Source: an uncultured Eubacteriales bacterium
GTDB lineage: Bacteria; Bacillota; Clostridia; Oscillospirales; QAMX01
Direction of reading: 5' to 3'
DNA length: 64,000 nucleotides
Assembly: GCA_905205975.1 (NCBI GenBank)
Contig: CAJLFQ010000003.1
Span: 3,130-67,129, forward strand
How positions within the stretch are numbered: position 1 is the first letter of the stretch; each line of letters begins with the position of its first letter. The notes under the pieces are model-generated. The model was not told where the DNA came from. It saw only the letters and a program-made list of their open reading frames with translations, and ran no database searches. Both the position numbers and the translations under genes were made by a program. Shown in pieces: positions 3,506 to 37,289 of this stretch.

Positions 3506-4180
3506 TTGCAGCGCAGTGATTTGCCGGTTCTCCGGCGCATCGATCCGGAAACGCTCAGCGAAATGGAAACGAGCGGCGGTGTCACATGCCGCCGGTACAC
3601 ACGCGGCAGTCTGATTCTGCACACCGGCGACCTCGTACATGAACTCGGCGTGGTTCTCCATGGCTGCGTCATGATAGAAAGTTTGGATTTGCTGGGCAAC
3701 CGCAGCATTGTCAATTTCATCCCGGCCGGACAGTGTTTTGCGGAAACATACGCCCTGTGCGGGGAGCCGCTGATGGTTGACGCGGTCTGTGCAGAGGATG
3801 CGGAAATTCTGTTTCTGGATCTCACCGCAGTCATGTGCGAACGCAACCGGCGGAAACCATGGTATCCGGCCTTTATGAGCGAACTGCTGACCATGACGGC
3901 GCAGAAAAATCTGGCGCTGTTCGACCGGATTTTCTGCACGACGCCGAAAGGCATCCGCGCCCGGCTGCTGACGTATTTGTCGGGGCAGGCGGTGCGCGCG
4001 AAAGCGGCGTCATTCTCCATCCCCTTCAACCGTCAGGAACTGGCGGATTATCTGAATCTGGATCGGAGTGCACTCTCCAAAGAGCTGTGCAAAATGCGCG
4101 ATGAAGGCATTCTCCGCTTTCGAAAGAATCACTTTGTCCTGCTGAAGCCGGAACGCCCGTGCGGCGGACAGAACGACTGA
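3506..4180 (+). CDS. Crp/Fnr family transcriptional regulator
   Basis: 224 aa with an N-terminal cNMP-binding-like beta-roll and a C-terminal HTH (NRQELADYLNLDRSALSKELCKMRDEGIL). TTG start lies 8 nt after GGAGG. Confidence 0.8.
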   Translation: MQRSDLPVLRRIDPETLSEMETSGGVTCRRYTRGSLILHTGDLVHELGVVLHGCVMIESLDLLGNRSIVNFIPAGQCFAETYALCGEPLMVDAVCAEDAEILFLDLTAVMCERNRRKPWYPAFMSELLTMTAQKNLALFDRIFCTTPKGIRARLLTYLSGQAVRAKAASFSIPFNRQELADYLNLDRSALSKELCKMRDEGILRFRKNHFVLLKPERPCGGQND

Positions 4181-4349
4181 AGATCGAATCCGGCCGGACC
4201 AGATGGCCGAAAACGGGCGGAACAAATCAAACATACCGGCGTGTACTTCCTTGGGAAAACTGCTGAATTTCACGCGGCGATCTTGACAGCATCCGGCACA
4301 TCCGATATAATATATCAAATATAGCCCTGAAAATGCGATAAAGGAGTGA

Positions 4350-5828
<1,479 letters not shown>

Positions 5829-10266: not shown

Positions 10267-10343
10267 TGGTCGGAGTGTCGGGATTCGAACCCGAGGCCTC
10301 TTGGTCCCGAACCAAGCGCGATACCAAACTTCGCCACACCCCG
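10267..10343 (-). tRNA. tRNA-Pro (anticodon CGG), CCA encoded
   Basis: Minus-strand read: CGGGGTGTGGCGAAGTTTGGTATCGCGCTTGGTTCGGGACCAAGAGGCCTCGGGTTCGAATCCCGACACTCCGACCA. It has a 7-bp acceptor stem, anticodon stem CTTGG/CCAAG with loop TTCGGGA, and T-arm GGTTCGAATCC. A downstream hairpin plus T-run lies at about 10236-10266. An upstream TTGACA-17-TGTATCAT promoter lies at about 10375-10405. Confidence 0.92.
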
Positions 10344-21896: not shown

Positions 21897-21925
21897 TTGA
21901 CAAAAAATTGCTGGAATGGTATAAT
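21897..21925 (+). promoter_or_regulatory. sigma-A promoter of the T-box operon
   Basis: TTGACA (21897-21902), 17-nt spacer, TGgTATAAT (21917-21925). Confidence 0.75.
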
Positions 21926-21938
21926 AAATGCATATATC

Positions 21939-22223
21939 GGATGCAGTGAACAAGAGGAGTAACCGCCTGAAACGATTCAGAGAAGGTGCGGCCGGTTTTC
22001 GCCGGGTGTGAGCCGCCCCATCGGGCAGGGCAGTGAAGGTCGCTTGTGAGCATTCTGTGCTGAACCGGCTGGTCGGCTGGTCGTAAGCGCAGGACGGGTG
22101 CTCCCGTTAACGGGCAGAGGTTTTTTGACCTTACTGAGTGTGCGGCGCTGCCGCAAATCTGGGTGGTACCGCGGGCTGATTTTCATGCGCCCGTCCCGAG
22201 CAATCGAGGACGGGCGCTTTTTT
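21939..22223 (+). promoter_or_regulatory. T-box riboswitch leader (probable Val, specifier GUC) with intrinsic terminator
   Basis: Conserved T-box sequence AAATCTGGGTGGTACCGCGG at 22155-22174. Terminator GCGCCCGTCC-loop-GGACGGGCGC plus T6 at 22187-22223. Stem I base helix GGATGC/GCATTC carries a GA (K-turn) motif. AGTA lies on the 5' side of the specifier loop, with an AGAGAAGG bay and distal GGTGTGA. The 3' side of the specifier loop reads GAAGGTCG (22035-22042). Confidence 0.88.
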
Positions 22224-22310
22224 ATATCTTTTTCTGCGCCATACCGCCGCTGCATCCGCCTGTCAATTCAAACGGTATGCACATGACTTATTTTGAGGGG
22301 GCTTGATTCT

Positions 22311-22868
22311 GTGTCTGACCATGTAAAGGAAATTGCCGTGCGGCTGAAAACCATGCGTGAAATTTCAGGCCTGACGGTAGAAGAAATGGGCGAACGCCTG
22401 ACCATTACGGCGGCGGAATACGCCAGAATGGAGAGCGGCGAGATCGATATTCCGGTCAGCGTTCTTTGTGAAGCGGCTGATATCTTCGGCATTTCGGTGA
22501 CTGAATTGCTGACGGGCGACCGCGCAAAACTGAAAATGTACTCCGTCGTCCGGAAAGGGCGCGGAATCGGCGTCGAACGAACGGCCGGCTATGACTATGC
22601 TTCTCTGGCACATGGCTTTGCAGAACGGCGCGTTGAGCCGCTGCTTGTCACCATCGAACCAAAAGACGATTCGACGGCGCTGCACATGAATACCCATACC
22701 GGCCATGAATTTCACTATTGTCTGGAAGGCGAAATGCGCCTGTATATCGGCGGCCATGAACTGACCATTCACGAGGGTGACTCGGTCTACTTTGATTCCA
22801 AATACCCGCACGCGATGCGCGCGCTCAACGGAAAGCCTGTGAAGCTGGTCGTCATCGTTATCAAATAA
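22311..22868 (+). CDS. XRE-family HTH regulator with C-terminal cupin domain
   Basis: 185 aa from GTG 22311 (GAGGGGG upstream). HTH region ISGLTVEEMGERLTITAAEYARMESGE. Cupin region HTGHEFHYCLEGEMRLYIGG...GDSVYFDSKYPH. Confidence 0.85.
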   Translation: MSDHVKEIAVRLKTMREISGLTVEEMGERLTITAAEYARMESGEIDIPVSVLCEAADIFGISVTELLTGDRAKLKMYSVVRKGRGIGVERTAGYDYASLAHGFAERRVEPLLVTIEPKDDSTALHMNTHTGHEFHYCLEGEMRLYIGGHELTIHEGDSVYFDSKYPHAMRALNGKPVKLVVIVIK

Positions 22869-22901
22869 AACACCCAAAAAACCACTTAGGCGAGGCTGAA
22901 T

Positions 22902-24560
22902 ATGCTGATTTCTAAATTCTGCGAGACACAATTCTCTTCTTATGAAGACTTCAGGGATCGTTTCAAAATCAACGTCCCGGAGAACTTTAACTTTGCATAC
23001 GACGTTGTCGATGAACTGGCGCGGACAAAACCGGATGCACGGGCGCTGGTCTGGTGCGACGACAAAGGCAACGACAAAACGTTCACGTTTGCCGACATGA
23101 AGCGCCTGTCGGATCAGGCGGCCTCTCTGTTCACGTCGGACGGCATCCGGAAAGGCGACGTGGTCATGACGCTCCTGCGCAGCAAATACCAATACTGGAT
23201 CTGTGCGCTGGCGCTGCATAAAATCGGTGCCGTTCTGCTGCCTGCCACGCATCAGCTGATGGCGAAAGACTTGGAATACCGGTTCCGTGCGGCTTCTGTT
23301 GCGGCGGTGGTGAGCATCGATGACGAGCGGCTGACCGCTGCGATCCGGCATGCGCAGGAAAACGCGCCGTCGCTGCGCAAAAAATATGTGGTCGGCCATG
23401 CGCCGGAAGGCTTCATCGACTTTGACGCTGCATTGGCTGCGGCATCGCCGGATTTTCAGCGGCCAACCGGTGCAGAGGCGACAACGAACGAAGACCTGAT
23501 GCTGATGTACTTCACCTCCGGAACGACCGGTATGCCGAAAATGGTCGTTCACGATTTCCGGTATCCGCTCGGTCACATCCTGACGGCCAAATTCTGGCAG
23601 GATCTTCACCCCGGCGACCTGCATTTTACCCACGCGGATACGGGGTGGGCCAAGACGTCATGGGGGAAAATCTATGGCCAGTGGATCTGCGAAGCAGCGA
23701 TCTTCGTCTACGACTACGAAAACAAATTCAAACCGACCGATCTCCTGCGCGTCATCGAACAGCATAAAGTCACGGTTTTCTGTGCACCGCCGACGGTTTT
23801 CCGCTTCCTGATCAAGGCTGACATCGAGCATTATGACCTCTCCTGTCTGCGCCATTGCTGCATCGCGGGCGAACCGCTCAACGCCGAAGTCTACAATAAA
23901 TGGAAAGAAATTACCGGGCTGGAGCTGCGCGAGGGGTTTGGCCAGTCGGAAACCTGCGTTCTGATTGCAACGTTCCCGTGGATTGCGGCGAAGCCCGGCT
24001 CTACGGGGCGCCCAAGTCCGCATTTCAATGTGAAATTGCTGGGCGGCGACGGGAAAGAAGTCGAACCCGGCGATGAAGGGGAAATCTGTATCGACATCTC
24101 CCATGGCCGGCCGGCCGGTCTGACCTGCGGATATTATCATGATCCGCTCAAAACCGCAGAAATCATGTATGACGGCTGGTATCACACCGGCGATATGGCA
24201 TGGATGGATGAAGACGGATACCTCTGGTTTGTCGGCCGCGCAGACGATGTGATCAAATCCTCCGGTTACCGCATCGGGCCGTTTGAAGTCGAAAGCGCGC
24301 TGCTGGAGCATCCGAGCGTCCTGGAAGCGGCGATTACGGCGGTGCCGGACAGTGAACGCGGCCAGATCGTGAAAGCGACGGTTGTCCTTGTCCAGGGAAC
24401 CGTTCCGTCTGACGCACTGAAAAAAGAACTGCAGGATCACGTCAAACGCACAACCGCGCCGTACAAGTATCCGCGGATCATTGAATTTGTCGAGGAGATC
24501 CCGAAGACGTTCAGCGGGAAGATCAAACGTGCGGAGATCCGCAGCAAGGATAAACGCTGA
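22902..24560 (+). CDS. AMP-forming acyl-CoA synthetase (medium/short-chain, ACSM/MACS-like)
   Basis: 552 aa. AMP-binding motifs YFTSGTTGMPK, WYHTGD, GRADDVIKSSGYRIGPFEVE and PKTFSGKIKR. Confidence 0.88.
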   Translation: MLISKFCETQFSSYEDFRDRFKINVPENFNFAYDVVDELARTKPDARALVWCDDKGNDKTFTFADMKRLSDQAASLFTSDGIRKGDVVMTLLRSKYQYWICALALHKIGAVLLPATHQLMAKDLEYRFRAASVAAVVSIDDERLTAAIRHAQENAPSLRKKYVVGHAPEGFIDFDAALAAASPDFQRPTGAEATTNEDLMLMYFTSGTTGMPKMVVHDFRYPLGHILTAKFWQDLHPGDLHFTHADTGWAKTSWGKIYGQWICEAAIFVYDYENKFKPTDLLRVIEQHKVTVFCAPPTVFRFLIKADIEHYDLSCLRHCCIAGEPLNAEVYNKWKEITGLELREGFGQSETCVLIATFPWIAAKPGSTGRPSPHFNVKLLGGDGKEVEPGDEGEICIDISHGRPAGLTCGYYHDPLKTAEIMYDGWYHTGDMAWMDEDGYLWFVGRADDVIKSSGYRIGPFEVESALLEHPSVLEAAITAVPDSERGQIVKATVVLVQGTVPSDALKKELQDHVKRTTAPYKYPRIIEFVEEIPKTFSGKIKRAEIRSKDKR

Positions 24561-24652: not shown

Positions 24653-24700
24653 AACCAAGCAGCGTTTCAGCGGCTGAATCCGATGAAACGCTGCTTGGTT
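24653..24700 (+). terminator. 17-bp perfect hairpin downstream of the acyl-CoA synthetase gene (no U-tract)
   Basis: AACCAAGCAGCGTTTCA, 14-nt loop, TGAAACGCTGCTTGGTT. It is preceded by a second 10-bp hairpin at 24574-24616 (AGCGTATTAC/GTAATACGCT). Confidence 0.5.
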
Positions 24701-24878: not shown

Positions 24879-24907
24879 TTGACAAAGTGCCCCAAATAAA
24901 ATATCAT
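24879..24907 (+). promoter_or_regulatory. sigma-A promoter of the 12-kb transporter-like operon
   Basis: TTGACA (24879-24884), 17-nt spacer, TATCAT (24902-24907), within a locally AT-rich stretch. It implies a ~220-nt 5' leader. Confidence 0.55.
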
Positions 24908-25134: not shown

Positions 25135-28100
25135 ATGCGGAGGTTTACCAGAAACGGCGAAAGCCGGAAAGTCTTCGCCAAAGCAGGCAGATCCTTCACG
25201 CGAAGCGTGGAAGTTTTGCTTGCCGCAGTGATGCTCGTGTCCGTGATGGCGGGAGCCTTGACGGCCCGTGCAGACGAGACCGAGGGAATCGGAGCGGTTG
25301 ACAAAACCGTGACCTCGAGCAATTTCAAAGAAGGCTCCTACAGCGCATACCAGAACGAGCACGCCGACAAACCCCTCTATCAGGGGGAGGATATCATTAT
25401 CCCGGCTGCCGACTACACTGACACGAATACAAACATCAAAGTTTTTGACGAATACGAGGGCGTCAAAAACGCGGTGCTCCTGAAGGACACCTCAAAGGAG
25501 CAGGAAGAAGACGAGAGCCATGGCGAATCCTCCGCGGATGGCAGCCTGGAGCTCAAGGAATATGACAAGGCCTATGTCACCTACAAAGTCAATATTCCGC
25601 AGTCTGCGATGTACGAGATCTACTTCAAGTATTTCCCGATTGAAGGCAAGGGCACTGAAATCGAACGTGAAATCATGATCGATGGCGCCTACCCCTTTAA
25701 TGAAGCGACCTACCTGGCTTTCTCCCGCATCTGGCAGGATACGGAAAAGGTCGGCACCGTCTTTGACACCGCCGGCAATGAAATCCGCCCCACCACGCAG
25801 GAAGCGCCGGAATGGACCGTGAAATATCTGAACGATGATCGCGGCTACTTCTTCAAATCGTTCCGCTTCTATCTGGAAGCCGGCGAACATGAACTCAAGA
25901 TCCTTTCCGTCAAAGAGCCGATGCTCCTTGCGGAAATCGGTCTCGGCATGAAAGACGAACCGCGGCCCTATGCGGAAGTCAAGGCCGAATACGAATCCAA
26001 AGGCTACCAGATGACCACCGGTCAAAGCGTGAAGATCGAAGCGGAAGACACGTTCCAGAAGAGCGCTTCTTCCCTCTACCCGTATCACAGCCGCGCCTCC
26101 GTCAGCACGACGGGCGTCTCCGGCAAATTTACCTATGACCATACGCAGGTCAACGTCATCGGCGGCGAACGCTGGGAGACGGCCGGCCAGTGGATTTCCT
26201 GGAAGATCACAGTCCCGGAAACCGGTCTGTACAACATCTCGGCGCGCGGCCGCCAGAACGTCAACAAGAGCATGACATCCGGCCGCTGCCTGCGCATCGA
26301 CGGTGAAATCCCGTTTGCAGAAGCGGAAAACTGCGGCTTCTTCTACAGCGCGGATTTCCGGATGTACACACTGGGCGATGAAGAAGTCGGCGAACCGTTC
26401 CTCTTCTATTTTGAAGCCGGCCGCGAATACACGATGTCCCTGCAGGTCAACCTGGGTGTCATCGAAGATCTGGCCCGCCGCCTGGATAACTCCGTGACCG
26501 AACTCATGACGGTTTACCGCCGCCTGCTGATGCTCATCGGCGCAACGCCGGATAAAGAGCGCGACTACGACTTCAAACAGGCGATGCCGAACGAGCTGAA
26601 AACCATGGCCGTTCAGGCGGACGAACTGGATTCCATTCTGAACGATATGCTTGAGGCGACCGGCGAGCGCAACTCGGATATGGCCGTTCTGGAACGTACC
26701 TCGAGACGTCTGAGAACCATGTCGGCGCACGAGCATACCATCGCCAAAAACTTTACGCAGTTCAAGAGTGATGTTTCGGCCATTGCAAACTGGATTCTTG
26801 ACCTGAACTACCAGCCCCTCGAGCTGGACTATTTCCTAATCACTTCGCCAGAAGAAAAACTGCCGAAGGCCAACGCCGGCTTCTTTGCAGGCATCGGCCA
26901 TGAGCTGCGCCTCTTCATCTCTTCGTTCACGACGGACTACACGTCAGTCGGTGCGGAAGTTTCCGCGGACGAAGCGGTGACTGTCTGGTTCGCCCCGGGC
27001 AATACGGCCGGTCAGGTCGTCGGCGGCGGCCGTGAACAGGCACAGATCCTGAAGCAGATGATCGATGACGACTTCACCGTCAATCACCCGGATGTCCCGG
27101 TCAACCTCCAGCTGATCGACCTGAGCGCACTGCTGCCGGCAACGCTGGCTGGCAAAGGCCCGGACGTCGCACTGCAAGTCGCGGGTACCAACCCGGTTCA
27201 GTACGCCATGCGCGGCGCCGTCGTCGACCTGGCGCAGTTCAGCGACTATCAGGAAGTCGCCAAACGGTTCTTCCCGAGCTCGCTGGTTCAGTTCCAGTAT
27301 CTGCAGGGCGTCTACGCACTGCCGGAAACGCAGACCTATCAGGTGATGTTCTACAGAACCGATATTATGGAAGAACTGGGTCTGGAAGTTCCGCAGACGT
27401 GGGCCGATGTCTACGACATCATTCCGGAACTGCAGAACAACTACATGAACTTCGGTTTCCCGGCCAACACAAACAACTACTACACGCTGCTCTATCAGAA
27501 CGGCGGCTCTCTCTACCGCGGCGAAGGCGAAACGCTCGGCTATGCGACCAACCTCGACTCGCAGACGGCTGTTGAATCCTTCATCTCCTACGTCGATATG
27601 TACCGCAGCTATAAGCTGGATATTCAGATCGACTTCCAGAACCGCTTCAGAACCGGTGAAGTTCCGATCGGTGTCGCCGACTTTACGACGGTGAACGCCC
27701 TGAGCGTTACGGCGCCGGAAATCCGCGGCCTGTGGAGCTTCGCGCTGGTTCCGGGTACGGAACGCACCGATGAAAACGGCAACACCTTCATTGACCGTTC
27801 TGTCGCAACAAGCGGTAACGGCTGTATCATCCTGAAGAAATCCAAACACCCGGAAAAGGCGTGGGAATTCATCAAGTGGTGGACATCCGACACGGCGCAG
27901 ACCCGTTACTGTCTCGAAGTCGAAGCAACGATGGGTGTTGCAGCCCGTATCCCGTCGGCCAACATCAACGTCATGTACAACCAGGCGTGGTCGACCGACG
28001 ATTATAAGATGCTGATGGCGCAGCGTGCATGGGCGAAGGGTATTCCGGAAGTTCCGGGCGGCTACTACACGACCCGTCACATGGATAACGCCTTCAACCG

Positions 28101-28224
28101 CACCTACACCAACAAAACAGACCCGCGTGAAACCCTGCTCGACTATATTGATGACATCAATGCTGAGCTGACCAAAAAGCGTGCTGAAATGGGCATCATT
28201 ACCGCCGATCAGATTACTAAGTAA
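25135..28224 (+). CDS. giant extracellular solute-binding protein: signal peptide + two CBM-like beta-sandwich modules + helical linker + family-1 SBP domain
   Basis: 1029 aa. N-terminal signal (LLAAVMLVSVMAGALTARA/DE) has no lipobox Cys. Two repeated module signatures: ...YEIYFKYFPIEGKGTEIEREIMIDG... and IEAEDTF...GLYNISARGRQNV...RCLRIDG. The C-terminal ~440 aa resemble CUT1 sugar-binding proteins (TVWFAPGN..., YALPETQTYQVMFYRTD, WEFIKWWTS). Confidence 0.8.
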   Translation: MRRFTRNGESRKVFAKAGRSFTRSVEVLLAAVMLVSVMAGALTARADETEGIGAVDKTVTSSNFKEGSYSAYQNEHADKPLYQGEDIIIPAADYTDTNTNIKVFDEYEGVKNAVLLKDTSKEQEEDESHGESSADGSLELKEYDKAYVTYKVNIPQSAMYEIYFKYFPIEGKGTEIEREIMIDGAYPFNEATYLAFSRIWQDTEKVGTVFDTAGNEIRPTTQEAPEWTVKYLNDDRGYFFKSFRFYLEAGEHELKILSVKEPMLLAEIGLGMKDEPRPYAEVKAEYESKGYQMTTGQSVKIEAEDTFQKSASSLYPYHSRASVSTTGVSGKFTYDHTQVNVIGGERWETAGQWISWKITVPETGLYNISARGRQNVNKSMTSGRCLRIDGEIPFAEAENCGFFYSADFRMYTLGDEEVGEPFLFYFEAGREYTMSLQVNLGVIEDLARRLDNSVTELMTVYRRLLMLIGATPDKERDYDFKQAMPNELKTMAVQADELDSILNDMLEATGERNSDMAVLERTSRRLRTMSAHEHTIAKNFTQFKSDVSAIANWILDLNYQPLELDYFLITSPEEKLPKANAGFFAGIGHELRLFISSFTTDYTSVGAEVSADEAVTVWFAPGNTAGQVVGGGREQAQILKQMIDDDFTVNHPDVPVNLQLIDLSALLPATLAGKGPDVALQVAGTNPVQYAMRGAVVDLAQFSDYQEVAKRFFPSSLVQFQYLQGVYALPETQTYQVMFYRTDIMEELGLEVPQTWADVYDIIPELQNNYMNFGFPANTNNYYTLLYQNGGSLYRGEGETLGYATNLDSQTAVESFISYVDMYRSYKLDIQIDFQNRFRTGEVPIGVADFTTVNALSVTAPEIRGLWSFALVPGTERTDENGNTFIDRSVATSGNGCIILKKSKHPEKAWEFIKWWTSDTAQTRYCLEVEATMGVAARIPSANINVMYNQAWSTDDYKMLMAQRAWAKGIPEVPGGYYTTRHMDNAFNRTYTNKTDPRETLLDYIDDINAELTKKRAEMGIITADQITK

Positions 28225-28238
28225 AGGAGGACGAGTCC

Positions 28239-29204
28239 TTGGCTGAAATCAACAAAACCGCCGGTGCGGCTCCAGCAAAGAATTCTGCGCTGAAGAACAT
28301 CGGTAAGTACTTCCAGTTCAAGTTCGGAGAGATGAAGAAAGCCCGTGCATATTACCTCTTCCTCCTTCCGTACGCCTTGATCTTCACGACATTTACGGTC
28401 ATTCCGGTTGTCGTGTCGGTCGGTCTCAGCTTTACGTCGTTCAATATGATTCAGGCGCCCCGCTTCATATTCATCGACAACTACTACCAGCTCTTCATGG
28501 TCGACGACCTGTTCCTGACCGCCATCAAGAACACCATCGTCTTCTCGGCGATTACAGGTCCTGTCGGCTACCTGATGTGCCTCTGCTTCGCATGGCTGAT
28601 CAACGAAATGCCGCCGAAGATCCGTGCCGTCATGACACTGCTCTTCTATGCACCGGCTATTTCGGGCAACAGCTACGTCATCTTCTCGTTCCTCTTCTCC
28701 GCCGATGAATACGGCTTCCTGAACTCCCGGCTTCTGAACTGGGGCTTCATCAATGAAGCAATCCCTTGGCTGAAGAGTGAGAAAACCATTCCGGCCTGCG
28801 TCATCGTGGTTATTCTGTGGCTCTCGCTTGGTACCGGCTTCCTTTCCCTGATCGCCGGTCTCCAGAGCGTCGACCATGAACTCTACGAAGCCGGCGCAAT
28901 TGACGGCATCCGCAACCGCTGGCAGGAGCTGTGGTTCATCACGCTGCCTTCCATGAAAGAACATTTGATGTTCGCCGCTGTCATGAGCATCACGGGTTCC
29001 TTCGGTATGGGCGCAGTCATCACATCCCTTGTCGGCTTCCCGAGCCCGAACTATTCCGCACATACCATTGTCCACCACCTGGAGGACTATGGTAATACAA
29101 GGTTTGAAATGGGCTATGCCTCCGCGATTGCAACGCTGCTGTTCCTGCTGATGGTCGGCGCGAACCAGCTTGTTCAGAAACTCCTCAGAAAGGTTGGTAC
29201 CTGA
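28239..29204 (+). CDS. ABC sugar permease, MalF/UgpA-like (pair 1)
   Basis: 321 aa, 6 TM, EAA loop LYEAGAIDGIRNRWQELWFITLP. Confidence 0.88.
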   Translation: MAEINKTAGAAPAKNSALKNIGKYFQFKFGEMKKARAYYLFLLPYALIFTTFTVIPVVVSVGLSFTSFNMIQAPRFIFIDNYYQLFMVDDLFLTAIKNTIVFSAITGPVGYLMCLCFAWLINEMPPKIRAVMTLLFYAPAISGNSYVIFSFLFSADEYGFLNSRLLNWGFINEAIPWLKSEKTIPACVIVVILWLSLGTGFLSLIAGLQSVDHELYEAGAIDGIRNRWQELWFITLPSMKEHLMFAAVMSITGSFGMGAVITSLVGFPSPNYSAHTIVHHLEDYGNTRFEMGYASAIATLLFLLMVGANQLVQKLLRKVGT

Positions 29205-29206
29205 TC

Positions 29207-30103
29207 ATGGAAAAGCTTGAAAAGCCGAAGAAGCGATTCCACTTCTTTAAATCCAAGGCTGGCAACCGTGTCAACCGCTCCCTTTCGGGTGACGTTGGCA
29301 TCGTAATCTTTCTGGTGTTCTTCGCGGTGATCATGGCCATCCCGCTGTACTACGCAATCGTTCAGTCGCTGAAGCCGCTGAACGAACTCTACATCTTCCC
29401 GCCGCGTATGTACGTCACCACCCCGACGATGGATAACTACGCAGACCTCTTCCGCTTGATGTCCAACTCGTGGGTTCCGTTCTCCCGCTACGTCTTCAAC
29501 ACCGTTATGATTACCGTCATCGGTACGTTCGGCCACATCATCCTCGCATCCATGGCCGCTTACCCGCTGGCGAAGTACCGGTTCCCCGGCAGTGTCGCAT
29601 TTTCGCACATTGTCCGTTTCGCCCTGATGTTCAACGCCACGGTTCTGACGATCCCGTCCTACATCATCATGGCAAAACTCGGCTGGATCGATACCTATCT
29701 TGCAGTTATTGTCCCGGCATTCGGTTCTTCACTGGGTCTGTACCTGATGCAGAACTTCATGGCGGACCTGCACGACGCCCTGTTTGACGCCGCAAAGATC
29801 GACGGCGCCAAAGAAGGCACCATCTTCTGGAAGATCGTTATGCCGAACGTCAAATCCGGCTGGCTCACCCTGATGATCTTCTCCGTGCAGAGCCTGTGGA
29901 ACACCAACAACGGTATGTACATCTACAGCGAACCGCTGAAGACCATGCCGTACGCCATCAACCAGATCACGAGCGGCGGCTATGCCCGCGCGGGCGCTGC
30001 ATCAGCCGGTGTCGTCATCATGATGCTGATCCCGATCCTCGTGTTCGTCATCTCCCAGAGCAACGTCCTTGAAACCATGCAGAAGTCCGGTATTAAAGAA
30101 TAA
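29207..30103 (+). CDS. ABC sugar permease, MalG/UgpE-like (pair 1)
   Basis: 298 aa, EAA loop LFDAAKIDGAKEGTIFWKIVMP. Starts 2 nt after the preceding stop. Confidence 0.88.
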   Translation: MEKLEKPKKRFHFFKSKAGNRVNRSLSGDVGIVIFLVFFAVIMAIPLYYAIVQSLKPLNELYIFPPRMYVTTPTMDNYADLFRLMSNSWVPFSRYVFNTVMITVIGTFGHIILASMAAYPLAKYRFPGSVAFSHIVRFALMFNATVLTIPSYIIMAKLGWIDTYLAVIVPAFGSSLGLYLMQNFMADLHDALFDAAKIDGAKEGTIFWKIVMPNVKSGWLTLMIFSVQSLWNTNNGMYIYSEPLKTMPYAINQITSGGYARAGAASAGVVIMMLIPILVFVISQSNVLETMQKSGIKE

Positions 30104-30120
30104 AAGGAGGTCGAGTCCGA

Positions 30121-31698
30121 ATGCGGAAAAGAATCGTTGCAGCGGTTATGCTGCTGCTGCTGTTCGCAGCACAGGCAGTGTCGGTCTTGGCCGCACCGCC
30201 TTCAAGGTCCTATACCTATAACACTGAGATGCTCCCGGTTGCTTCGCCGAACCCCTACACCTATAACGGCGAAATCAACGGCATCGATCAGGGTGTTGGC
30301 CGGTTCCTCGAACCGGAAGATTTTGTCGTCGATGATGACAACTTCATCTACCTGCTCGACGCCGGCAACAAACGCGTGCTTGTCTTCAATGAAAACAAGC
30401 AGATTGTCCGTGTACTCGATCACTTTGACTATAAGGGCGAAGCAATCACGCTCAAAGCCCCGCAGGGTCTGTACATCTATCAGTACTACGGCATAAAGCT
30501 GCTCTATGTTTCCGATACGGAAAACAGCCGGATCTTCCGCGTGGATCTGACCAATGAGCTGCACGGCGAAGTGGAAACCAACGCCACTGCCAAGGTCGAC
30601 CGCATGTACGGGAAACCGGTCATCGACATTATTGCCGAAGATACGCCGTACTACCCGACCAAATTCATCGTTGACCGTGCTGAACGTATTTTCGTTCTGG
30701 GTCGTACGATCAACCGCGGCGTTATCAAGCTGACGAGCGATGGTTCATTTGACTCGTTCTTCGGCGCCCCGGACGTTTCGTATTCCCTGGTCGAAAAGTT
30801 CTGGCGTATGCTTTCAACCGAAGCGCAGCGCCAAAAGAGCCTGAAATACGTCCCGACGGAATACTCCAACATCGCGCAGGATTCCCGCGGCTTTACCTAT
30901 GTGACCATCTCCACGATGGAACGCCAGAAGCTTTACAGCACGTTCAACACCAAACCGGACGATACGGATGCCCGTGCGAACAACGCAGTCATCCGGAAAC
31001 TGGCGGCAGACGGTACGGATATCCTGACCAGACGCGGCTACTTCCCGCCGGTCGGTGACCTTTCGGTTTACAACCCGACGGCTGTTGAAGCTGTTCTGGC
31101 CGGTATGTCCTCGTTTGTCGACGTCTGCATCAACGACTATGACGTTTACACGATCATTGACGACATGCGCGGCAAGGTCTTCACCTACGACAACGAAGGC
31201 AACCTGCTCTTTGTTTTCGGCGGCACCGCTACACAGTACGGGACCTTCCAGAAACCGGTCGCGGTTTCCTACTTCAAGGATAATCAGATCTGCATCCTGG
31301 ATAAACGTTCCGCATCGCTGGCGTTCTTTACGCCGACGGACTACGGCGCGTCGATCCTGGCAGCTGTCAAAGCCTACCATGACGGTGAGTATGAGCTCTC
31401 CGAAGACATGTGGGGCCGCGTCCTTGAGATGAACTCCAACATGACGCAGGCGTACGGCGGCGCAGGCAAGTCCCTGCTCCGTGCCGGCGAGTACAAACAG
31501 GCGATGGAAAATTTCCGGATCGCGAAAAATACGGAATATTATTCCAAAGCGCTTGAACAGTATCTCAGCAACCTGATCGGCAGTAAGTTCACCTACATCT
31601 TCCTGATTGTGGTTGGCCTGTTCCTGCTCTCGAAGATCTGGAAACTGATCAAGAGATTCAGACGCTTCCTCCGCGAAGGCGTCAAGAAGGTGGTGTAA
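30121..31698 (+). CDS. secreted NHL-repeat beta-propeller protein with TPR-like segment and C-terminal TM anchor
   Basis: 525 aa. Signal peptide MRKRIVAAVMLLLLFAAQAVSVLA. Recurrent NHL-like strands: FIYLLDAGNKRVLVF, LLYVSDTENSRIFRV, RIFVLGRTINRGVIKL, VYTIIDDMRGKVFTY, ICILDKRSASLAFF. TPR-like AGEYKQAMENFRIA. C-terminal TM FTYIFLIVVGLFLLSKIW followed by a K/R-rich tail. Confidence 0.7.
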   Translation: MRKRIVAAVMLLLLFAAQAVSVLAAPPSRSYTYNTEMLPVASPNPYTYNGEINGIDQGVGRFLEPEDFVVDDDNFIYLLDAGNKRVLVFNENKQIVRVLDHFDYKGEAITLKAPQGLYIYQYYGIKLLYVSDTENSRIFRVDLTNELHGEVETNATAKVDRMYGKPVIDIIAEDTPYYPTKFIVDRAERIFVLGRTINRGVIKLTSDGSFDSFFGAPDVSYSLVEKFWRMLSTEAQRQKSLKYVPTEYSNIAQDSRGFTYVTISTMERQKLYSTFNTKPDDTDARANNAVIRKLAADGTDILTRRGYFPPVGDLSVYNPTAVEAVLAGMSSFVDVCINDYDVYTIIDDMRGKVFTYDNEGNLLFVFGGTATQYGTFQKPVAVSYFKDNQICILDKRSASLAFFTPTDYGASILAAVKAYHDGEYELSEDMWGRVLEMNSNMTQAYGGAGKSLLRAGEYKQAMENFRIAKNTEYYSKALEQYLSNLIGSKFTYIFLIVVGLFLLSKIWKLIKRFRRFLREGVKKVV

Positions 31699-31701
31699 AA
31701 G

Positions 31702-32334
31702 ATGGCAGAGCTTTGGAAACAGTTGCGTTACTCAACCCATGTCATGTTCCACCCGTTTGACGGCTTCTGGGATCTGAAACACGAACACAGAGGCAGCGTG
31801 AAAGCAGCGATGGTGCTGCTGGCGATGCTGGTGCTCAACTCGATCATCAAGACGCAGTTTACCGGCTTCCTTTACAACCCGTATTATGACGGCGTCAGCC
31901 TGAACGTGTTCAGCGAACTGACATCGGTTGTCGGTACCTTCTTCCTGTGGTGCATTTCGAACTGGAGCTTGACAACCCTGATGGACGGCGAAGGCCGCTT
32001 CAGTGATATCGTGATGGTCAGTGCTTACGCGCTGGTCCCGATGTTCCTGATCGGAATTCCGCTGACCTTCCTCAGCAACGTCATGCCGCTCGATTATGCA
32101 GCATTCTACAACATCGTCTTGAGCTTCACCTACATTTGGGCTGGGTTCCTGATGTTGGCGGGTCTGATGGTTGTTCACCAGTACACCCTCGGCAAGACGC
32201 TCCTGTCGGCCATCCTGATCATTGTCGGTATGGCGGTCATCGTCTTCCTTGGTCTGTTGTTCTTCAACCTGATTTCTCAGCTGGTCGGCTTCGTTGTCGA
32301 ACTCTATTGGGAAATCTCGCTCAGATTCTTCTAA
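31702..32334 (+). CDS. Yip1-domain integral membrane protein
   Basis: 210 aa with about 5 TM helices. N-terminal HPFDGFWDLKHE motif and overall topology resemble bacterial YIP1 family proteins, from memory. Confidence 0.65.
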   Translation: MAELWKQLRYSTHVMFHPFDGFWDLKHEHRGSVKAAMVLLAMLVLNSIIKTQFTGFLYNPYYDGVSLNVFSELTSVVGTFFLWCISNWSLTTLMDGEGRFSDIVMVSAYALVPMFLIGIPLTFLSNVMPLDYAAFYNIVLSFTYIWAGFLMLAGLMVVHQYTLGKTLLSAILIIVGMAVIVFLGLLFFNLISQLVGFVVELYWEISLRFF

Positions 32335-32349
32335 AGGGGAGGTGCTTGG

Positions 32350-35304
32350 ATGAAAAAGATCAGAAAATATGCGGTAATCTGCTATATCCTCGCGCTGGCG
32401 ATGATCCTGCCGTTGAGCAGCATGGCAATTACCCCCATGAAGGAACAGTTCGTTGCTCCGGGCTATGCAGATCCTTACATCGAAGGCGCCGGAAAATCGT
32501 CGCCCCTTTCCATCGAGGTCGACCACATTCCGAACGAACGCCTGAACATCAAAGTGACGGATTCGCGCACCGGTAAAGTCTGGGAGACCAACCCGGTATA
32601 CACCGGCGGCGACAAAGCATCCACAACAGAAGACAAAAAGAAAGAGCTGCATTCGCAGATCCTTCTGACCTACACGTTTGATAAAAACGGCAACGCCGAC
32701 AAACTGGCGGATATCGGTTACATGTCTTCTGCAACGTCTGTCGGCAAATTCAACAGCTATGAGGAATCAGTCGTCAAGAACCAGCTGACCATTCAGTATG
32801 TGCTTGACAACGGTGACCTGCTGGACTATTATGTCGATGCAGACGCGCAAACACTGGAAGTCAACCAAATCCCGGCCGGCAGATCGGTCGTTGGATTCCG
32901 CGTTGGATACGGTTTCGGCGATAAGAACGCTTCGCTGTACCCGGTTATGATCACCGAGTCCCGTATGAACGAGATGCTTGATCGAATCGAGATCAAAGGC
33001 GAAGACGGAACCATTGACGAAGCCGCAACGGAAAAGATGAAAAAGAACATCCTTTCCAAATACCGTCTGACGACGCTGGAAGGCAAGCTGGAAGAAATCG
33101 AACGCCAGGTCAAACGCCAGAAGACGGAAGAAGACAAAAAGAAGAAACGCAAGGAACTGGAAGATCAGCTGAATGATTACCTTGCGAAGTACCCGGTTCT
33201 CGAAGAGGAGAACATTTACGAACTGTACAGCGACGCAACCAGCACCACGAGAAATAAAAAGCTCCTGGTCAGCTACTGGGCATCGATCCCGTACACCCGT
33301 GAAGATCTCGACTTCGATAACCAGATGATCGGCTACGAGAAATCGGCAGGCGGCGTCAGCTTTGAAATCCCGGTGCTCTATATGATCGAAGGCAGCACCT
33401 TCCGTGCGACGGTTCTGACCAGTGAAATTGACCAACCGGCTGAAGTTGGCATCACCCGTCTGGACTTCCTGCCCGGTTTTGCCGGCGCCGACGATACCGT
33501 TCTGAAAGGCTACACCCTTGTCCCGGACGGCAGCGGCTCGCTCGTTCCGATCAACAGCGAAGACCAGCGCCAGACCGGTTACCAGGTTGCTGTTATGAAC
33601 CGCCAGAAAGACGAAGGTCTTTCGATGAACTCCTCGAACATGCGCGACATCCCGTATTATGAATATACGCTGATGCCGGTGTTCGGCCAGAAGCAGGACG
33701 ATAACGCTTACTTCTGCATCATCGAAGAAGGCTATGAATTCGCAAACATCACGGCTTATGTCGCAGATAGCTTTACGAAGTATAATACGGCCTTTGCCTC
33801 ATTCTTCCCAATTGTTACCGACGATATCTACTACTCCTCCGGCAGCGAGAGCGGCATTACGATGTTCCCGAAGGTCAAAGTCGAAGAAGAGAAGATGTCG
33901 ATCAAGTACACCCGCGACCCGGATACCAAAGAAGTCTCGACTGAAGAAGTCGTTAAGAAAACGGTCAGCAACTACTGCCGTCTTCCGGCTTCCAACCTGT
34001 CCGTCCGCTATGCATTCCTCTCGGGGGATCAGGCGAACTACGTCGGTATGGCAAACTACTACCGCACGTACCTGATGAATACCTACGACATGGAAAAACG
34101 CACCAACTTCGGTGAAGACATGACGTTCTATGCCGACCTTTATGGTATCATCGACAAAAAAATCAGCTTTGCCGGCTTCCCGATCAACCGGAAGTTCGCG
34201 CTGACGACGTTTGACCAGGCTGAAGAGATTGTTCAGGCACTCTTTGATAACGGCGTCAAGGATCTGAAACTCCGTTATCTCGGCATGATCAACGGCGGCA
34301 TGAATCAGCGCTACGCCGGAAACTTCAAAGTGGAAGGCAACCTCGGCGGCAAGAAGGGCTATCAGAACTTCCTGACGAAGATGGAATCGCTCGGCGTTGA
34401 GGTTTACCCGGATATCGACGTGACGCACGTCTATCAGGACCGTATGTTTGACGGTTTCGACCCGAATGATGATACGGTCATGACACTCGGTAAAACACAG
34501 TCGATCATCTTCGACTTCAACATCGCCACCGGTATCAAAGACCCGAGAAGCGACTCCCGCTATTATCATCCGCGCTGGATCATTTCCCCGCGCCTGTACG
34601 AAGACTTGTTCGATACGCTTCAGGAAAAGCTCGACAAGTTCGGCAACAAGCATATTTCTCTGAGTACACTTGGCAGCAAGCTTTCCTCTGACTATAACGA
34701 GGATATGATCATCGACCGCGGACAGACCGCCCGCGTGGTTGCAGATCAGCTCAAACAGTATCAAGAAGCCGGCTACGACATGATCGTCGAAAAAGGTTTT
34801 GTTTATACGCTGCCGTACGTTTCCACCGTTCTGGACATCCCGCTGACCTCCAGCATGTTCACGGTTGAAATGTATGACATCCCGTTTGTTCAGCTTGTTC
34901 TGCACGGCTTGGTTGAATATGCCGGTGAACCGCTCAACCTCACGCAGGACGTTCAGTACAGCATTCTGAAATGCCTGGAGTATGGCGCTACGGTCTATGG
35001 CCGGTACATGTATCAGCCGGATACCGTCTTCCAGAATACATACTTCCTGAACCTCTTCTCGCTCAACTATCAGAGCTGGATGGATGAAACCAAAGCAGTC
35101 TACACGGCAGTCAACGAGGCCATCCGTGACGTTCAGGGGCAGTTCATGGTGAACCACGAACGTCTGGCTGACAACGTCTACCGTACGACTTACGAGAACG
35201 GCAAACAGGTAATCGTCAACTACAACACGGTTGATTACTTTGTTGAAGAACTCGGCGTTACGGTTGCAGCCAGAGGCTATTATGTAACGGGAGGTGCCCA
35301 GTAA
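32350..35304 (+). CDS. large secreted protein of unknown function (resembles what I recall being annotated DUF5696)
   Basis: 984 aa. Signal/anchor MKKIRKYAVICYILALAMILPLSSMA. A K/E-rich coiled segment (EEIERQVKRQKTEEDKKKKRKELEDQL). The C-terminal half has alternating beta/alpha-like pattern (GVKDLKLRYLGMINGGMNQ..., VEVYPDIDV). I recognise no catalytic motif. Confidence 0.6.
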   Translation: MKKIRKYAVICYILALAMILPLSSMAITPMKEQFVAPGYADPYIEGAGKSSPLSIEVDHIPNERLNIKVTDSRTGKVWETNPVYTGGDKASTTEDKKKELHSQILLTYTFDKNGNADKLADIGYMSSATSVGKFNSYEESVVKNQLTIQYVLDNGDLLDYYVDADAQTLEVNQIPAGRSVVGFRVGYGFGDKNASLYPVMITESRMNEMLDRIEIKGEDGTIDEAATEKMKKNILSKYRLTTLEGKLEEIERQVKRQKTEEDKKKKRKELEDQLNDYLAKYPVLEEENIYELYSDATSTTRNKKLLVSYWASIPYTREDLDFDNQMIGYEKSAGGVSFEIPVLYMIEGSTFRATVLTSEIDQPAEVGITRLDFLPGFAGADDTVLKGYTLVPDGSGSLVPINSEDQRQTGYQVAVMNRQKDEGLSMNSSNMRDIPYYEYTLMPVFGQKQDDNAYFCIIEEGYEFANITAYVADSFTKYNTAFASFFPIVTDDIYYSSGSESGITMFPKVKVEEEKMSIKYTRDPDTKEVSTEEVVKKTVSNYCRLPASNLSVRYAFLSGDQANYVGMANYYRTYLMNTYDMEKRTNFGEDMTFYADLYGIIDKKISFAGFPINRKFALTTFDQAEEIVQALFDNGVKDLKLRYLGMINGGMNQRYAGNFKVEGNLGGKKGYQNFLTKMESLGVEVYPDIDVTHVYQDRMFDGFDPNDDTVMTLGKTQSIIFDFNIATGIKDPRSDSRYYHPRWIISPRLYEDLFDTLQEKLDKFGNKHISLSTLGSKLSSDYNEDMIIDRGQTARVVADQLKQYQEAGYDMIVEKGFVYTLPYVSTVLDIPLTSSMFTVEMYDIPFVQLVLHGLVEYAGEPLNLTQDVQYSILKCLEYGATVYGRYMYQPDTVFQNTYFLNLFSLNYQSWMDETKAVYTAVNEAIRDVQGQFMVNHERLADNVYRTTYENGKQVIVNYNTVDYFVEELGVTVAARGYYVTGGAQ

Positions 35305-36311
35305 TGGCGGCCGATGTCAAGAAAAAAGACGGCTTTTTCTACAAAGTCAAACGGTTTATTCTGAAGGCATTGCGAATGGACCTGATGGAAAGGCGAAACC
35401 TGGCGGGCTACGTTTTCGTCCTCCCGTTCATCTTGGGCTTGCTGCTGATCTTCCTGCCGTCCATGGTGCAGTCCTTCCTCTTCAGCCGCAGTGACATCGT
35501 CATTCGTGCCGATGGTACGGGCTATGACCTCATCAGCAAAGGCTTTATCCACTATTACGACTCGTTCTTCACGGATACGGATTTCCGCATCAAGCTGGTG
35601 CATACGCTCCGCGATATCGTCATCAACCTGCCGGTTATCCTGATCTTCTCGTTCTTCATGGCACTGCTTTTGAACCGCAAGAAGTTCCCCGGAAGAACCG
35701 TGTTCCGTATCATCTTCTTCCTGCCGGTTATCATCTACACCGGTATTGCTTCCACCGCTGGTATCACCTCCGGCTCTTCCGAATTGTCTGAAGCGGCGTC
35801 GCAGGTCTTCGCAGACCCGACCATCGGCAACGAAGGGATGCAGTCCGGCGCAACCAGTATCATCGGTATGGCAATGAACATTGAAGCCATCATCTCGTCG
35901 CTCGGCTTGGGCACGACGCTGATGAACTTCATCCAGACCTCGATCAGCCGTCTGGAATGGATTATCCAGTCCTCCGGCGTTCAGATCCTCGTCTTCCTGG
36001 CCGCTCTGCAAGGCGTCCCGACTTCAATCTTTGAAGCCGCAAGCGTTGAAGGCCTGACGAGCTGGGAAATGTTCTGGAAGATCACGCTCCCGATGATCAG
36101 CCCGCAGATCCTGGTCAATACGATCTACACGGTCGTTGACTCCTTTACGAACCAGCGCTATGAGGTTCTTCCGTATATCCAGAAGATCTCATTTTCCAAC
36201 GCGGACTACGGTCTCGGGTCGGCCATGGCGTTCATCTATTTCCTCTGTACGATCATCTTGATTGGTCTGGTTTCCCTGATCATCTCGAAGTTCGTATTCT
36301 ACAACGAATAG
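35304..36311 (+). CDS. ABC sugar permease, MalF-like (pair 2)
   Basis: 335 aa, EAA loop IFEAASVEGLTSWEMFWKITLP. The ATG overlaps the preceding TAA (TAATG). Confidence 0.85.
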   Translation: MAADVKKKDGFFYKVKRFILKALRMDLMERRNLAGYVFVLPFILGLLLIFLPSMVQSFLFSRSDIVIRADGTGYDLISKGFIHYYDSFFTDTDFRIKLVHTLRDIVINLPVILIFSFFMALLLNRKKFPGRTVFRIIFFLPVIIYTGIASTAGITSGSSELSEAASQVFADPTIGNEGMQSGATSIIGMAMNIEAIISSLGLGTTLMNFIQTSISRLEWIIQSSGVQILVFLAALQGVPTSIFEAASVEGLTSWEMFWKITLPMISPQILVNTIYTVVDSFTNQRYEVLPYIQKISFSNADYGLGSAMAFIYFLCTIILIGLVSLIISKFVFYNE

Positions 36312-36323
36312 GAGTGTGTGAAC

Positions 36324-37289
36324 ATGGAAAAAGTAGTCAAGAATCATACAACTACCTATCGTGAGACAACGAAAGGCGAACGTGCAAAAGCCAAATATCT
36401 GTCTTGGCGTTTTGTCGCGACGATCTTTGGGAACATCTTTGCGTACGTTCTGACCATTGGTATCGCATTCGTCATCATCTACCCGCTGCTTCGCCGTATC
36501 GGCAACGCGTTCAAACCGGTTGAAGAGTTCTACGATACCTCAATCGTTTACTTCCCCAGAAACCCAACCTTTGAGGTTGTGCGTCAGGCTTTCTACAGAC
36601 TGAACTTCAAGCAAGTTGGTATCCCGTCCTTCCTGATGGCGCTGTACGTCGGCCTGACACAGATGGTCGTCGCACTGCTCGTCGGTTACGGGTTTGCCCG
36701 TTTCAAGTTCAGAGGCTCCAGAGTTCTGTTTGCGTGCGTGATTCTGACGCTGGTCGTTCCGCCGCAGACGATTTTGATCCCGCTGTACCTGCGCTTCCGT
36801 TATTTCGATATCCTCGGGATTTTCAAAGCCATTACCGGCCACTCTCTGAAGCTGATCGATACCTACTGGTGTCAGATCCTGCTTTCAGCAACCGGTCTCG
36901 GCTGGAAGAACGGCTTGTACATCTACTTGATGCGCCAGTACTTCCGCGGCGTCCCGAAGGCGCTGGAAGAAGCGGCCTACATCGACGGCGCACGGACGTT
37001 TAAGGCGTTTGTGAAGATCATGGTGCCGTCCGCACTCCCGATGATGCTGACGGTTTTCCTCTTCTCCTTCTCCTGGCAGTGGACGGATACGTTCTACACC
37101 GGCACCTTCCTCATCAAGAAGAAGCTGCTGGCGACGAGCGTCAACGCGATTACGCATGAAAATGAGCTGATGGCATTCAACCTCCAGCAGACGGCTATCC
37201 TCATCATCCTGATCCCGCTGATCTTCCTGTTCGTTGTCACACAGCGTTACTTCGTCGAAGGTATCGAACGTTCCGGCTTGACCGGCTGA
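36324..37289 (+). CDS. ABC sugar permease, MalG-like (pair 2)
   Basis: 321 aa from the ATG at 36324 (track ORF starts at GTG 36318). EAA loop LEEAAYIDGARTFKAFVKIMVP. Confidence 0.85.
   Translation: MEKVVKNHTTTYRETTKGERAKAKYLSWRFVATIFGNIFAYVLTIGIAFVIIYPLLRRIGNAFKPVEEFYDTSIVYFPRNPTFEVVRQAFYRLNFKQVGIPSFLMALYVGLTQMVVALLVGYGFARFKFRGSRVLFACVILTLVVPPQTILIPLYLRFRYFDILGIFKAITGHSLKLIDTYWCQILLSATGLGWKNGLYIYLMRQYFRGVPKALEEAAYIDGARTFKAFVKIMVPSALPMMLTVFLFSFSWQWTDTFYTGTFLIKKKLLATSVNAITHENELMAFNLQQTAILIILIPLIFLFVVTQRYFVEGIERSGLTG

Follow-up and report, generated by a model that had tools for sequence, protein, structure and literature searches.

Why would a riboswitch that senses uncharged tRNA stand in front of a transcription factor and an acyl-CoA synthetase? 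The question is raised by a 64,000-nucleotide stretch of DNA from an uncultured Eubacteriales bacterium (contig CAJLFQ010000003.1, positions 3,130 to 67,129; hereafter the window), in which a T-box leader precedes a gene for an XRE-cupin regulator and a gene for an AMP-forming acyl-CoA synthetase (below, the ligase). We find a canonical transcription-attenuating T-box whose specifier very likely reads valine, and we find relatives of the ligase encoded beside VorB-type 2-oxoacid:ferredoxin oxidoreductases. On this evidence we think it rather probable that valine starvation induces, via a tRNA-Val T-box operon, the activation of isobutyrate followed by its reductive carboxylation to valine.

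A canonical T-box leader behind a consensus promoter

A scan of the window with the Rfam T-box covariance model (RF00230, gathering score 93) returned a full-length match on the + strand at 21937-22201 (95.0 bits, E = 1.5e-19, model positions 1-219, not truncated). It is the sole cis-regulatory RNA detected in the 64 kb. The other Rfam match is a tRNA-Pro gene with anticodon CGG (10267-10343, - strand), the only tRNA gene of the window; no tRNA-Val gene was found there.

Upstream of the leader lies a sigma-70-type promoter, TTGACA-17 nt-TATAAT with a TG extension (21897-21925, + strand), which agrees with the consensus at 12/12 positions and from which transcription probably starts near 21932. 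Eight related T-box loci (L161, L163-L167, L001 and L081) were scanned for an equivalent, and each has a TTGACA-N16-18-TATAAT-like site at the corresponding place.

The leader RNA (21937-22201, + strand) comprises Stem I, Stem II, Stem IIA/B with CCGUUA, Stem III and the antiterminator. Stem I carries a GA/K-turn motif (AGUGA ... UGA) and an AGAGA bay. Its specifier loop contains an S-turn (AGUA ... GAA) and is made of a 5′ strand, AGGAGUAA, at 21955-62 and a 3′ strand, GAA-G-GUC-G, at 22035-22042; in the helix under the loop, CAAG (21951-54) pairs with CUUG (22043-46). Model alignment and folding place the T-box sequence and antiterminator at 22155-22198 (+ strand), the T-box sequence itself being AAAUCUGGGUGGUACCGCGG (about 22155-22174), with a 7-nt bulge, UGGUACC, at 22164-70. 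The intrinsic terminator (22187-22223, + strand) has a 10-bp GC-rich stem, in which GCGCCCGUCC (22187-96) pairs with GGACGGGCGC (22208-17), and ends in U6 (22218-23).

The 5′ strand of the terminator overlaps the 3′ strand of the antiterminator, and the two folds were recovered separately. When the platform was cut ahead of the terminator 3′ strand, it folded into Stem III and a canonical antiterminator with the 7-nt bulge; uncut, it folded into the terminator hairpin followed by U6. In a consensus fold of nine aligned leaders, 26 of the 56 pairs are maintained through changes on both sides, and the terminator stem shows compensatory changes across relatives. The window leader is a canonical transcription-attenuating T-box, and every element named in an earlier reading made from the sequence alone, down to the terminator with its T6 run, was found in its place by the RF00230 match and by folding.

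The relatives used here and below were gathered from species-representative genomes, metagenomes and contigs encoding the closest database homologues of the ligase. They include 13 further T-box loci (L161, L162, L163, L164, L165, L166, L167, L171, L172, L173, L001, L081 and L170), each with an orthologous ligase behind the leader that is 64-89% identical to the window ligase. Their leaders score 75-105 bits on RF00230. One of them, the leader of L166 (4156-4410), is about 45 nt shorter and has a much reduced Stem II region, with specifier loop, T-box sequence and terminator intact.

The specifier codon reads valine rather than glycine

In a T-box the specifier is the triplet before a conserved purine at the 3′ end of the specifier loop. 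In the window leader this triplet is GUC (22039-22041, + strand), a valine codon, followed by the conserved purine G22042 and then by the helix strand CUUG (22043-22046). The 3′ strand of the loop is eight bases long in all 14 leaders (the window and its 13 relatives) and takes the form GAA-N-[GUC or GUA]-G: it is GAAGGUCG, with GUC, in 11 leaders, and GAACGUAG, with GUA, in the remaining three (L001, L081 and L170). Both triplets are valine codons and differ in the third position alone; Ile or Leu specifiers occur in none of the 14. The 4-bp helix beneath the loop appears in five variants (CAAG:CUUG, CAGG:CCUG, CAUG:CAUG, CCUG:CAGG and CUUG:CAAG), and because these changes are compensatory they fix the boundary of the loop. 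L171, for example, has GAAGGUCG above CUUG:CAAG in its cmscan alignment.

The antiterminator carries a second signal of tRNA identity. In the UGGN bulge it is the fourth base (N) that pairs with the discriminator base of the tRNA, A73 in bacterial tRNA-Val and U73 in bacterial tRNA-Gly. The bulge reads UGGU in 14/14 leaders, and A73 is therefore expected in the cognate tRNA, as in tRNA-Val and unlike tRNA-Gly.

Glycine has to be considered since GGU sits in the GAA+3 register of the window leader. Were the codon read straight after GAA, as in B. subtilis glyQS, where it lies directly behind GAA, the leader would be a glycine-specific T-box and the operon would answer glycine limitation. In L001, L081 and L170, however, the GAA+3 register holds CGU (Arg), while the helix-adjacent register stays valine (GUA). 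The invariant UGGU bulge pairs with A73 and not with the U73 of tRNA-Gly, and the Rfam alignment sets GUC in the three positions preceding the conserved purine, contrary to the glycine register. A conserved signal would not be expected to switch between Gly and Arg from leader to leader; we rejected the glycine reading and give it almost no credence.

We therefore consider it very likely that the specifier reads valine. Valine had been preferred over glycine in the sequence-only reading, with a model-based specifier call as a check. It has held on both counts: GUC (11) or GUA (3) stands above a covarying helix, with UGGU in all 14 bulges, and the Rfam model places GUC in the codon slot.

The leader precedes a two-gene operon, and no second promoter was found

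The first gene behind the terminator (22311-22868, + strand) encodes a regulator of 185 aa with an XRE-family helix-turn-helix (HTH) domain and a cupin domain (HTH_31, 8.6e-10; Cupin_2, 5.7e-18); the open reading frame also matches HTH_3. We take the GTG at 22311, behind a ribosome binding site GAGGGGG at 22295-22301, as the true start because the homologues are likewise 185 aa long with the same start. The second gene (22902-24560, + strand) encodes a 552-aa AMP-forming acyl-CoA synthetase of the MacsMa/MbcS type (AMP-binding, 220 bits; AMP-binding_C, 77 bits). It starts 33 nt past the stop of the regulator gene and the gap contains no terminator, so the two genes are read as co-transcribed. 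A perfect 17-bp hairpin with a weak U tract (AACCAAGCAGCGTTTCA ... TGAAACGCTGCTTGGTT; 24653-24700, + strand) lies 93 nt past the ligase stop and is probably the operon terminator. The next promoter-like site beyond the operon is at 24879-24907.

Such an arrangement gives the leader control only if transcription has to pass through it. It could instead be a relic or be bypassed, with expression coming mainly from a downstream promoter, or being set by the XRE-cupin protein alone, regardless of tRNA charging. In favour of this, the XRE start codon of the window lies 87 nt past the U tract; in addition, one member of the clade, L168, has lost its T-box, and most homologous modules operate without one. 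The sequence-only reading had counted an independent promoter downstream of the terminator as fatal to its case; from the U tract to the XRE start, however, the + strand holds no promoter-like site of at least 9/12. In L164, L165 and L166 the spacer between terminator and XRE gene is about 20-35 nt, which leaves no room for a promoter, and no element besides the ribosome binding site is conserved between terminator and XRE start in the T-box loci. The leader has also been maintained with compensatory changes while the ligase diverged to 64% identity, and in three loci it is the sole upstream element ahead of the ligase. A bypassed leader is on these grounds very improbable.

The ligase resembles MacsMa and is predicted to activate small branched acids

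The best solved relative of the ligase is MacsMa, the medium-chain acyl-CoA synthetase of Methanosarcina acetivorans (Q8TLW1; PDB 3ETC; E = 6.7e-224). The alignment runs end to end, with window ligase residues 2-551 against chain residues 27-578, and the window ligase shares 57-58% identity with the orthologues of Methanosarcina. In the comparison of the two enzymes EGFGQSE aligns with EGFGQTE, the motif in which we take the pocket Trp of Acs to be placed. For the remaining positions we used the residue numbers of PMC10455477 (3ETC chain index = native number + 23).

MacsMa prefers 2-methylbutyrate, and in its acyl pocket an alternate residue, Trp259, replaces the pocket Trp of Acs, which is Gly in Macs (PMC10455477). 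The equivalent of Trp259 is conserved in the window ligase as W254. Motif III (YHTGD) is conserved too, as are the equivalents of Gly459, Tyr460, Arg490, Lys519, Tyr525 and Tyr527, the functionally characterised residues of the CBAL-like CoA site of MacsMa (PMC10455477). Lys461 of MacsMa is Arg in the window ligase, and a K461R variant of MacsMa showed modest effects only (PMC10455477).

The top NCBIfam model for the ligase is MbcS (NF047394) at 448.5 bits. As this is far under the equivalog cut-off of 850, we do not regard the ligase as an MbcS orthologue. MbcS, the methylbutyryl-CoA synthetase of S. aureus, selectively activates 2-methylbutyrate and isobutyrate, and not acetate (PMC10026030). 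Judged by its sequence, the window ligase is a MacsMa-type enzyme for small branched acids. Homology together with the valine T-box points to isobutyrate as the most likely substrate, perhaps alongside 2-methylbutyrate.

The same homology leaves room for a broader enzyme. The switch might read valine while the ligase is a generalist for isobutyrate, 2-methylbutyrate and isovalerate, or prefers 2-methylbutyrate, with valine charging as a proxy for a shortage of branched-chain amino acids (BCAAs). Besides the preference of MacsMa for 2-methylbutyrate, its adenylation step accepts C3-C8 and some branched acids (PMC10455477), and MbcS uses both 2-methylbutyrate and isobutyrate. Against a generalist stands the lack of any Ile or Leu specifier among the 14 leaders; a valine codon kept so strictly over such divergence suggests a specific link to valine. 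We regard the generalist as distinctly improbable.

Relatives of the ligase are encoded beside VorB-type oxidoreductases

Reductive carboxylation of branched short-chain acids to BCAAs through 2-oxoisovalerate:ferredoxin oxidoreductase (VOR, EC 1.2.7.7) is a classical route of rumen and gut anaerobes, established by labelling physiology. A VorB-type oxidoreductase is encoded next to relatives of the ligase. When the ligases were placed in a neighbour-joining tree, L002, L003, L013 and L169 made up the clade immediately sister to the T-box group, and in these loci four oxidoreductase genes lie directly upstream of the XRE-cupin and ligase genes, on the same strand and tightly spaced. They encode a ferredoxin-like delta subunit, a POR_N alpha subunit, a TPP_enzyme_C beta subunit and a POR gamma subunit. 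NCBIfam NF005507 ('3-methyl-2-oxobutanoate dehydrogenase subunit VorB'), with a cut-off of 399, matches the alpha subunit of L169 at 536 bits. VorB-type strings are located at 1738-4255 in L002, 1257-3769 in L003, 1798-4309 in L013, 1478-4240 in L169 and 6951-9725 in L026.

In about 22 of the 169 loci the module has oxidoreductase genes as same-strand neighbours. Among loci with a methanogen-named record, 10/11 have homologous oxidoreductase genes directly downstream of the ligase; Methanosarcina sp. T3 has on one strand the genes for the XRE-cupin protein and Macs, a small open reading frame, the alpha subunit gene and a longer open reading frame spanning the beta and gamma matches. The genomic link between ligase and VorB-type oxidoreductase is seen in relatives only.

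These observations suggest the following sequence of events. The strong constitutive promoter (21897-25) would yield a leader of about 290 nt, in which the GUC specifier of the Stem I loop would pair with the anticodon of tRNA-Val. If the tRNA is uncharged, its free ACCA end would pair with the UGGU bulge, stabilise the antiterminator and allow readthrough into the two-gene operon; if it is charged, the terminator (22187-22223) would form and transcription would stop. The ligase would then convert isobutyrate (perhaps also 2-methylbutyrate), ATP and CoA to the acyl-CoA, a VorB-type oxidoreductase presumed to be encoded elsewhere in the genome would reductively carboxylate isobutyryl-CoA to 2-oxoisovalerate, and an aminotransferase would convert 2-oxoisovalerate to valine. 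With the module the operon probably inherited, in the XRE-cupin protein, a second layer of control that responds to a ligand. The route from isobutyrate through isobutyryl-CoA and 2-oxoisovalerate to valine had been put forward in the sequence-only reading; the MacsMa/MbcS-type ligase and the VOR adjacency in relatives lend it substantial support, short of proof. The sequences establish the leader anatomy, the valine codon, the operon layout, the family of the enzyme and the conserved neighbourhoods; the substrate, the biosynthetic direction of the route and the part played by the regulator are inferred from them.

Several observations weigh against this account. The window leader passes the gathering score of RF00230 by 2 bits, and the leaders of L171-L173 fall under it (75-84 bits, E <= 1e-14). 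The purine behind the codon is G, where A is more usual. Neither VOR nor branched-chain aminotransferase (BCAT) nor ilv genes were found in the 64-kb window. When the 200 nt ahead of 148 XRE genes were searched for a palindrome, no operator candidate rose above AT-rich noise. The characterised relatives of the ligase favour 2-methylbutyrate, an isoleucine precursor, at least as much as isobutyrate, while the T-box reads valine. Finally, with VOR next to the ligase, two routes could equally be meeting at one branched acyl-CoA destined for lipids.

This last point opens another use for the operon. Under the same valine T-box, the ligase could serve membrane lipids rather than rebuild valine: when valine, from which the primer normally comes, is scarce, it would provide isobutyryl-CoA to prime iso-branched fatty acids. 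VOR adjacency alone cannot separate the two uses. MbcS, the top NCBIfam match, channels 2-methylbutyrate and isobutyrate into branched fatty-acid synthesis (PMC10026030), and PMC11300592 places a Bacteroides homologue of MacsMa, along with BCAT and VOR, among branched-lipid genes. The MbcS match itself, however, misses its equivalog cut-off (448 vs 850 bits). To our knowledge, methanogens make no fatty-acid lipids. The VOR-bearing module is nevertheless kept in them, and they are reported to use branched acids for amino acids, namely 2-methylbutyrate and isovalerate for the synthesis of Ile and Leu (PMC10658910). T-box regulons, moreover, serve to restore charged tRNA (PMC2494555). We judge the supply of lipid primers possible but unlikely, and continue to prefer the rebuilding of valine. 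In Prevotella bryantii the reverse reaction via EC 1.2.7.7 has been called possible but unproven (PMC7709123).

The T-box was added to an older regulator-ligase module

The sequence-only reading had considered both downstream genes unusual for a T-box. This holds for the acyl-CoA ligase. For the transcription factor the module loci tell otherwise: 148 of 160 loci (L001-L160, with the ligase at about position 5001 or 4001 of each) have an XRE-cupin gene immediately ahead of the ligase gene, and most exceptions are contig ends. On this distribution the XRE-cupin gene is best taken as the ancestral partner of the ligase, with the T-box set before a pre-existing pair, and the regulator, taken by itself, is therefore no anomalous target for a T-box. 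The 160 loci span Clostridia, Bacteroidales, relatives of Geobacter and Pelobacter, Ignavibacteria, Endomicrobia, Treponema and methanogens, so that the two-gene module appears to be distributed across domains.

On the PuuR model (NCBIfam NF007408) the regulator scores 42.8 bits, short of the cut-off of 211, and a PDB search gave generic cupin matches only, uninformative on the ligand.

A T-box motif stands beside the ligase in one clade only, as judged by simple T-box-motif scans of the loci, with an Rfam scan for the sister clade and L168. In the neighbour-joining ligase tree, which does not contain L170-L173, the T-box loci form one group. The Rfam scan found no element, T-box included, at E <= 0.1 ahead of the VOR-XRE-ligase operons of the sister clade or in L168. 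The latter falls inside the T-box group and is syntenic with L166 (rpiA upstream), has no leader and leaves a gap of 42 nt between rpiA and the XRE gene (locus positions 3670-5000); its loss of the leader appears secondary.

The reverse loss is seen in the sublineage L001/L081 and in L170, where the XRE gene is absent and a valine (GUA) leader directly abuts the ligase gene (L001 4628-5000, L081 3628-4000, L170 3670-4000). In these three loci the riboswitch appears to have replaced the protein regulator and to be the only visible control left. The locus thus illustrates a riboswitch layered over a protein regulator and, in one sublineage, replacing it.

A larger picture would join these parts: the XRE-cupin gene and the Macs-type ligase gene, often with a VorB-type oxidoreductase, would form a dedicated and very widespread cassette with which anaerobes (Clostridia, Bacteroidales, Geobacter relatives and methanogens) convert branched short-chain acids from the environment to BCAAs. 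One clade of uncultured Clostridia would have recruited a tRNA-Val T-box ahead of this cassette, and in one sublineage the T-box would have replaced the regulator. Whether this picture is right seems to us an even call.

Neighbouring genes

The genes flanking the operon are not related to amino-acid metabolism. Upstream lie a GH92 glycosidase and a polysaccharide deacetylase. Past the ligase, a block resembling a sugar-uptake system (25135-37289, + strand) encodes a solute-binding protein of 1029 aa (SBP_bac_1) that carries a long extension at its N-terminus; two ABC permeases, an NHL-repeat protein and a DUF5696 protein of 984 aa follow, then two further permeases. The SBP_bac_1 gene and the first permease gene are also syntenic downstream of the ligase in those related XRE-containing T-box loci whose contigs reach that far. 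Since this downstream block is shared with the window, we assign these loci to one bacterial lineage of uncultured Clostridia.

Significance and comparison with known systems

In a survey of T-box regulons, aminoacyl-tRNA synthetases account for 62%, biosynthesis for 18% and transport for 12% (PMC2494555). Neither 'CoA' nor 'acyl' occurs in the main text of that survey, its supplementary gene lists lying outside the check. A literature search of incomplete coverage turned up no report pairing a T-box with an acyl-CoA synthetase or with VOR, and no paper naming the activating ligase of the reductive carboxylation route or a tRNA-sensing control of it. The riboswitch itself is a textbook T-box; its target gene appears in none of the reports found.

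A T-box marks the amino acid served by the genes behind it, and here it would connect the supply of valine with a large enzyme family whose annotation is vague. At E <= 1e-100 the ligase matches more than 8,000 database proteins, many of which carry names such as 'acetyl-CoA synthetase' or 'AMP-binding protein'. Taken with the VOR genes conserved beside relatives, the T-box makes the ligase a testable candidate for the first step of branched-acid reductive carboxylation. If the larger picture of a dedicated cassette is right, the long-missing activating enzyme of the classical rumen pathway would be named, and the T-box would be the first evidence from regulation for a biosynthetic direction of the cassette. 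The branched-acid route is important to methanogens, to gut bacteria that grow by degrading fibre and to cross-feeding on branched acids.

The window leader shares its whole architecture with the canonical T-boxes of Firmicutes (Bacillus valS, ileS and ilv-leu): a Stem I with K-turn, S-turn specifier loop, AG bay and distal loop, then Stem II, IIA/B and III, a 14-nt T-box sequence, mutually exclusive antiterminator and terminator, and transcriptional attenuation. As in these, codon and purine stand directly above the helix. It differs from them in having G as the purine behind the codon and in its targets, a transcription factor and an acyl-CoA synthetase in place of an aminoacyl-tRNA synthetase, de novo biosynthesis genes or a transporter.

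Among the protein systems, PuuR-type repressors resemble the window regulator in combining an N-terminal XRE HTH with a C-terminal cupin, and the alignment extends over the whole length; unlike theirs, the XRE-cupin gene of the window itself sits behind a riboswitch. MbcS, unlike the predicted role of the window ligase, serves branched fatty-acid synthesis, and no T-box control of MbcS turned up in the part of PMC10026030 consulted, which bore on substrates and not on regulation. The Methanosarcina loci of MacsMa type share with the window an XRE-cupin gene upstream of the ligase, whereas these archaeal loci are without a T-box and have oxidoreductase genes directly downstream of the ligase. 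MacsMa also differs in preferring 2-methylbutyrate, whereas the riboswitch of the window points to valine and hence to isobutyrate. With the classical reductive-carboxylation route, finally, the pathway proposed here would be identical, and the sister clade and the methanogens carry its ligase and VorB-type genes in single strings.

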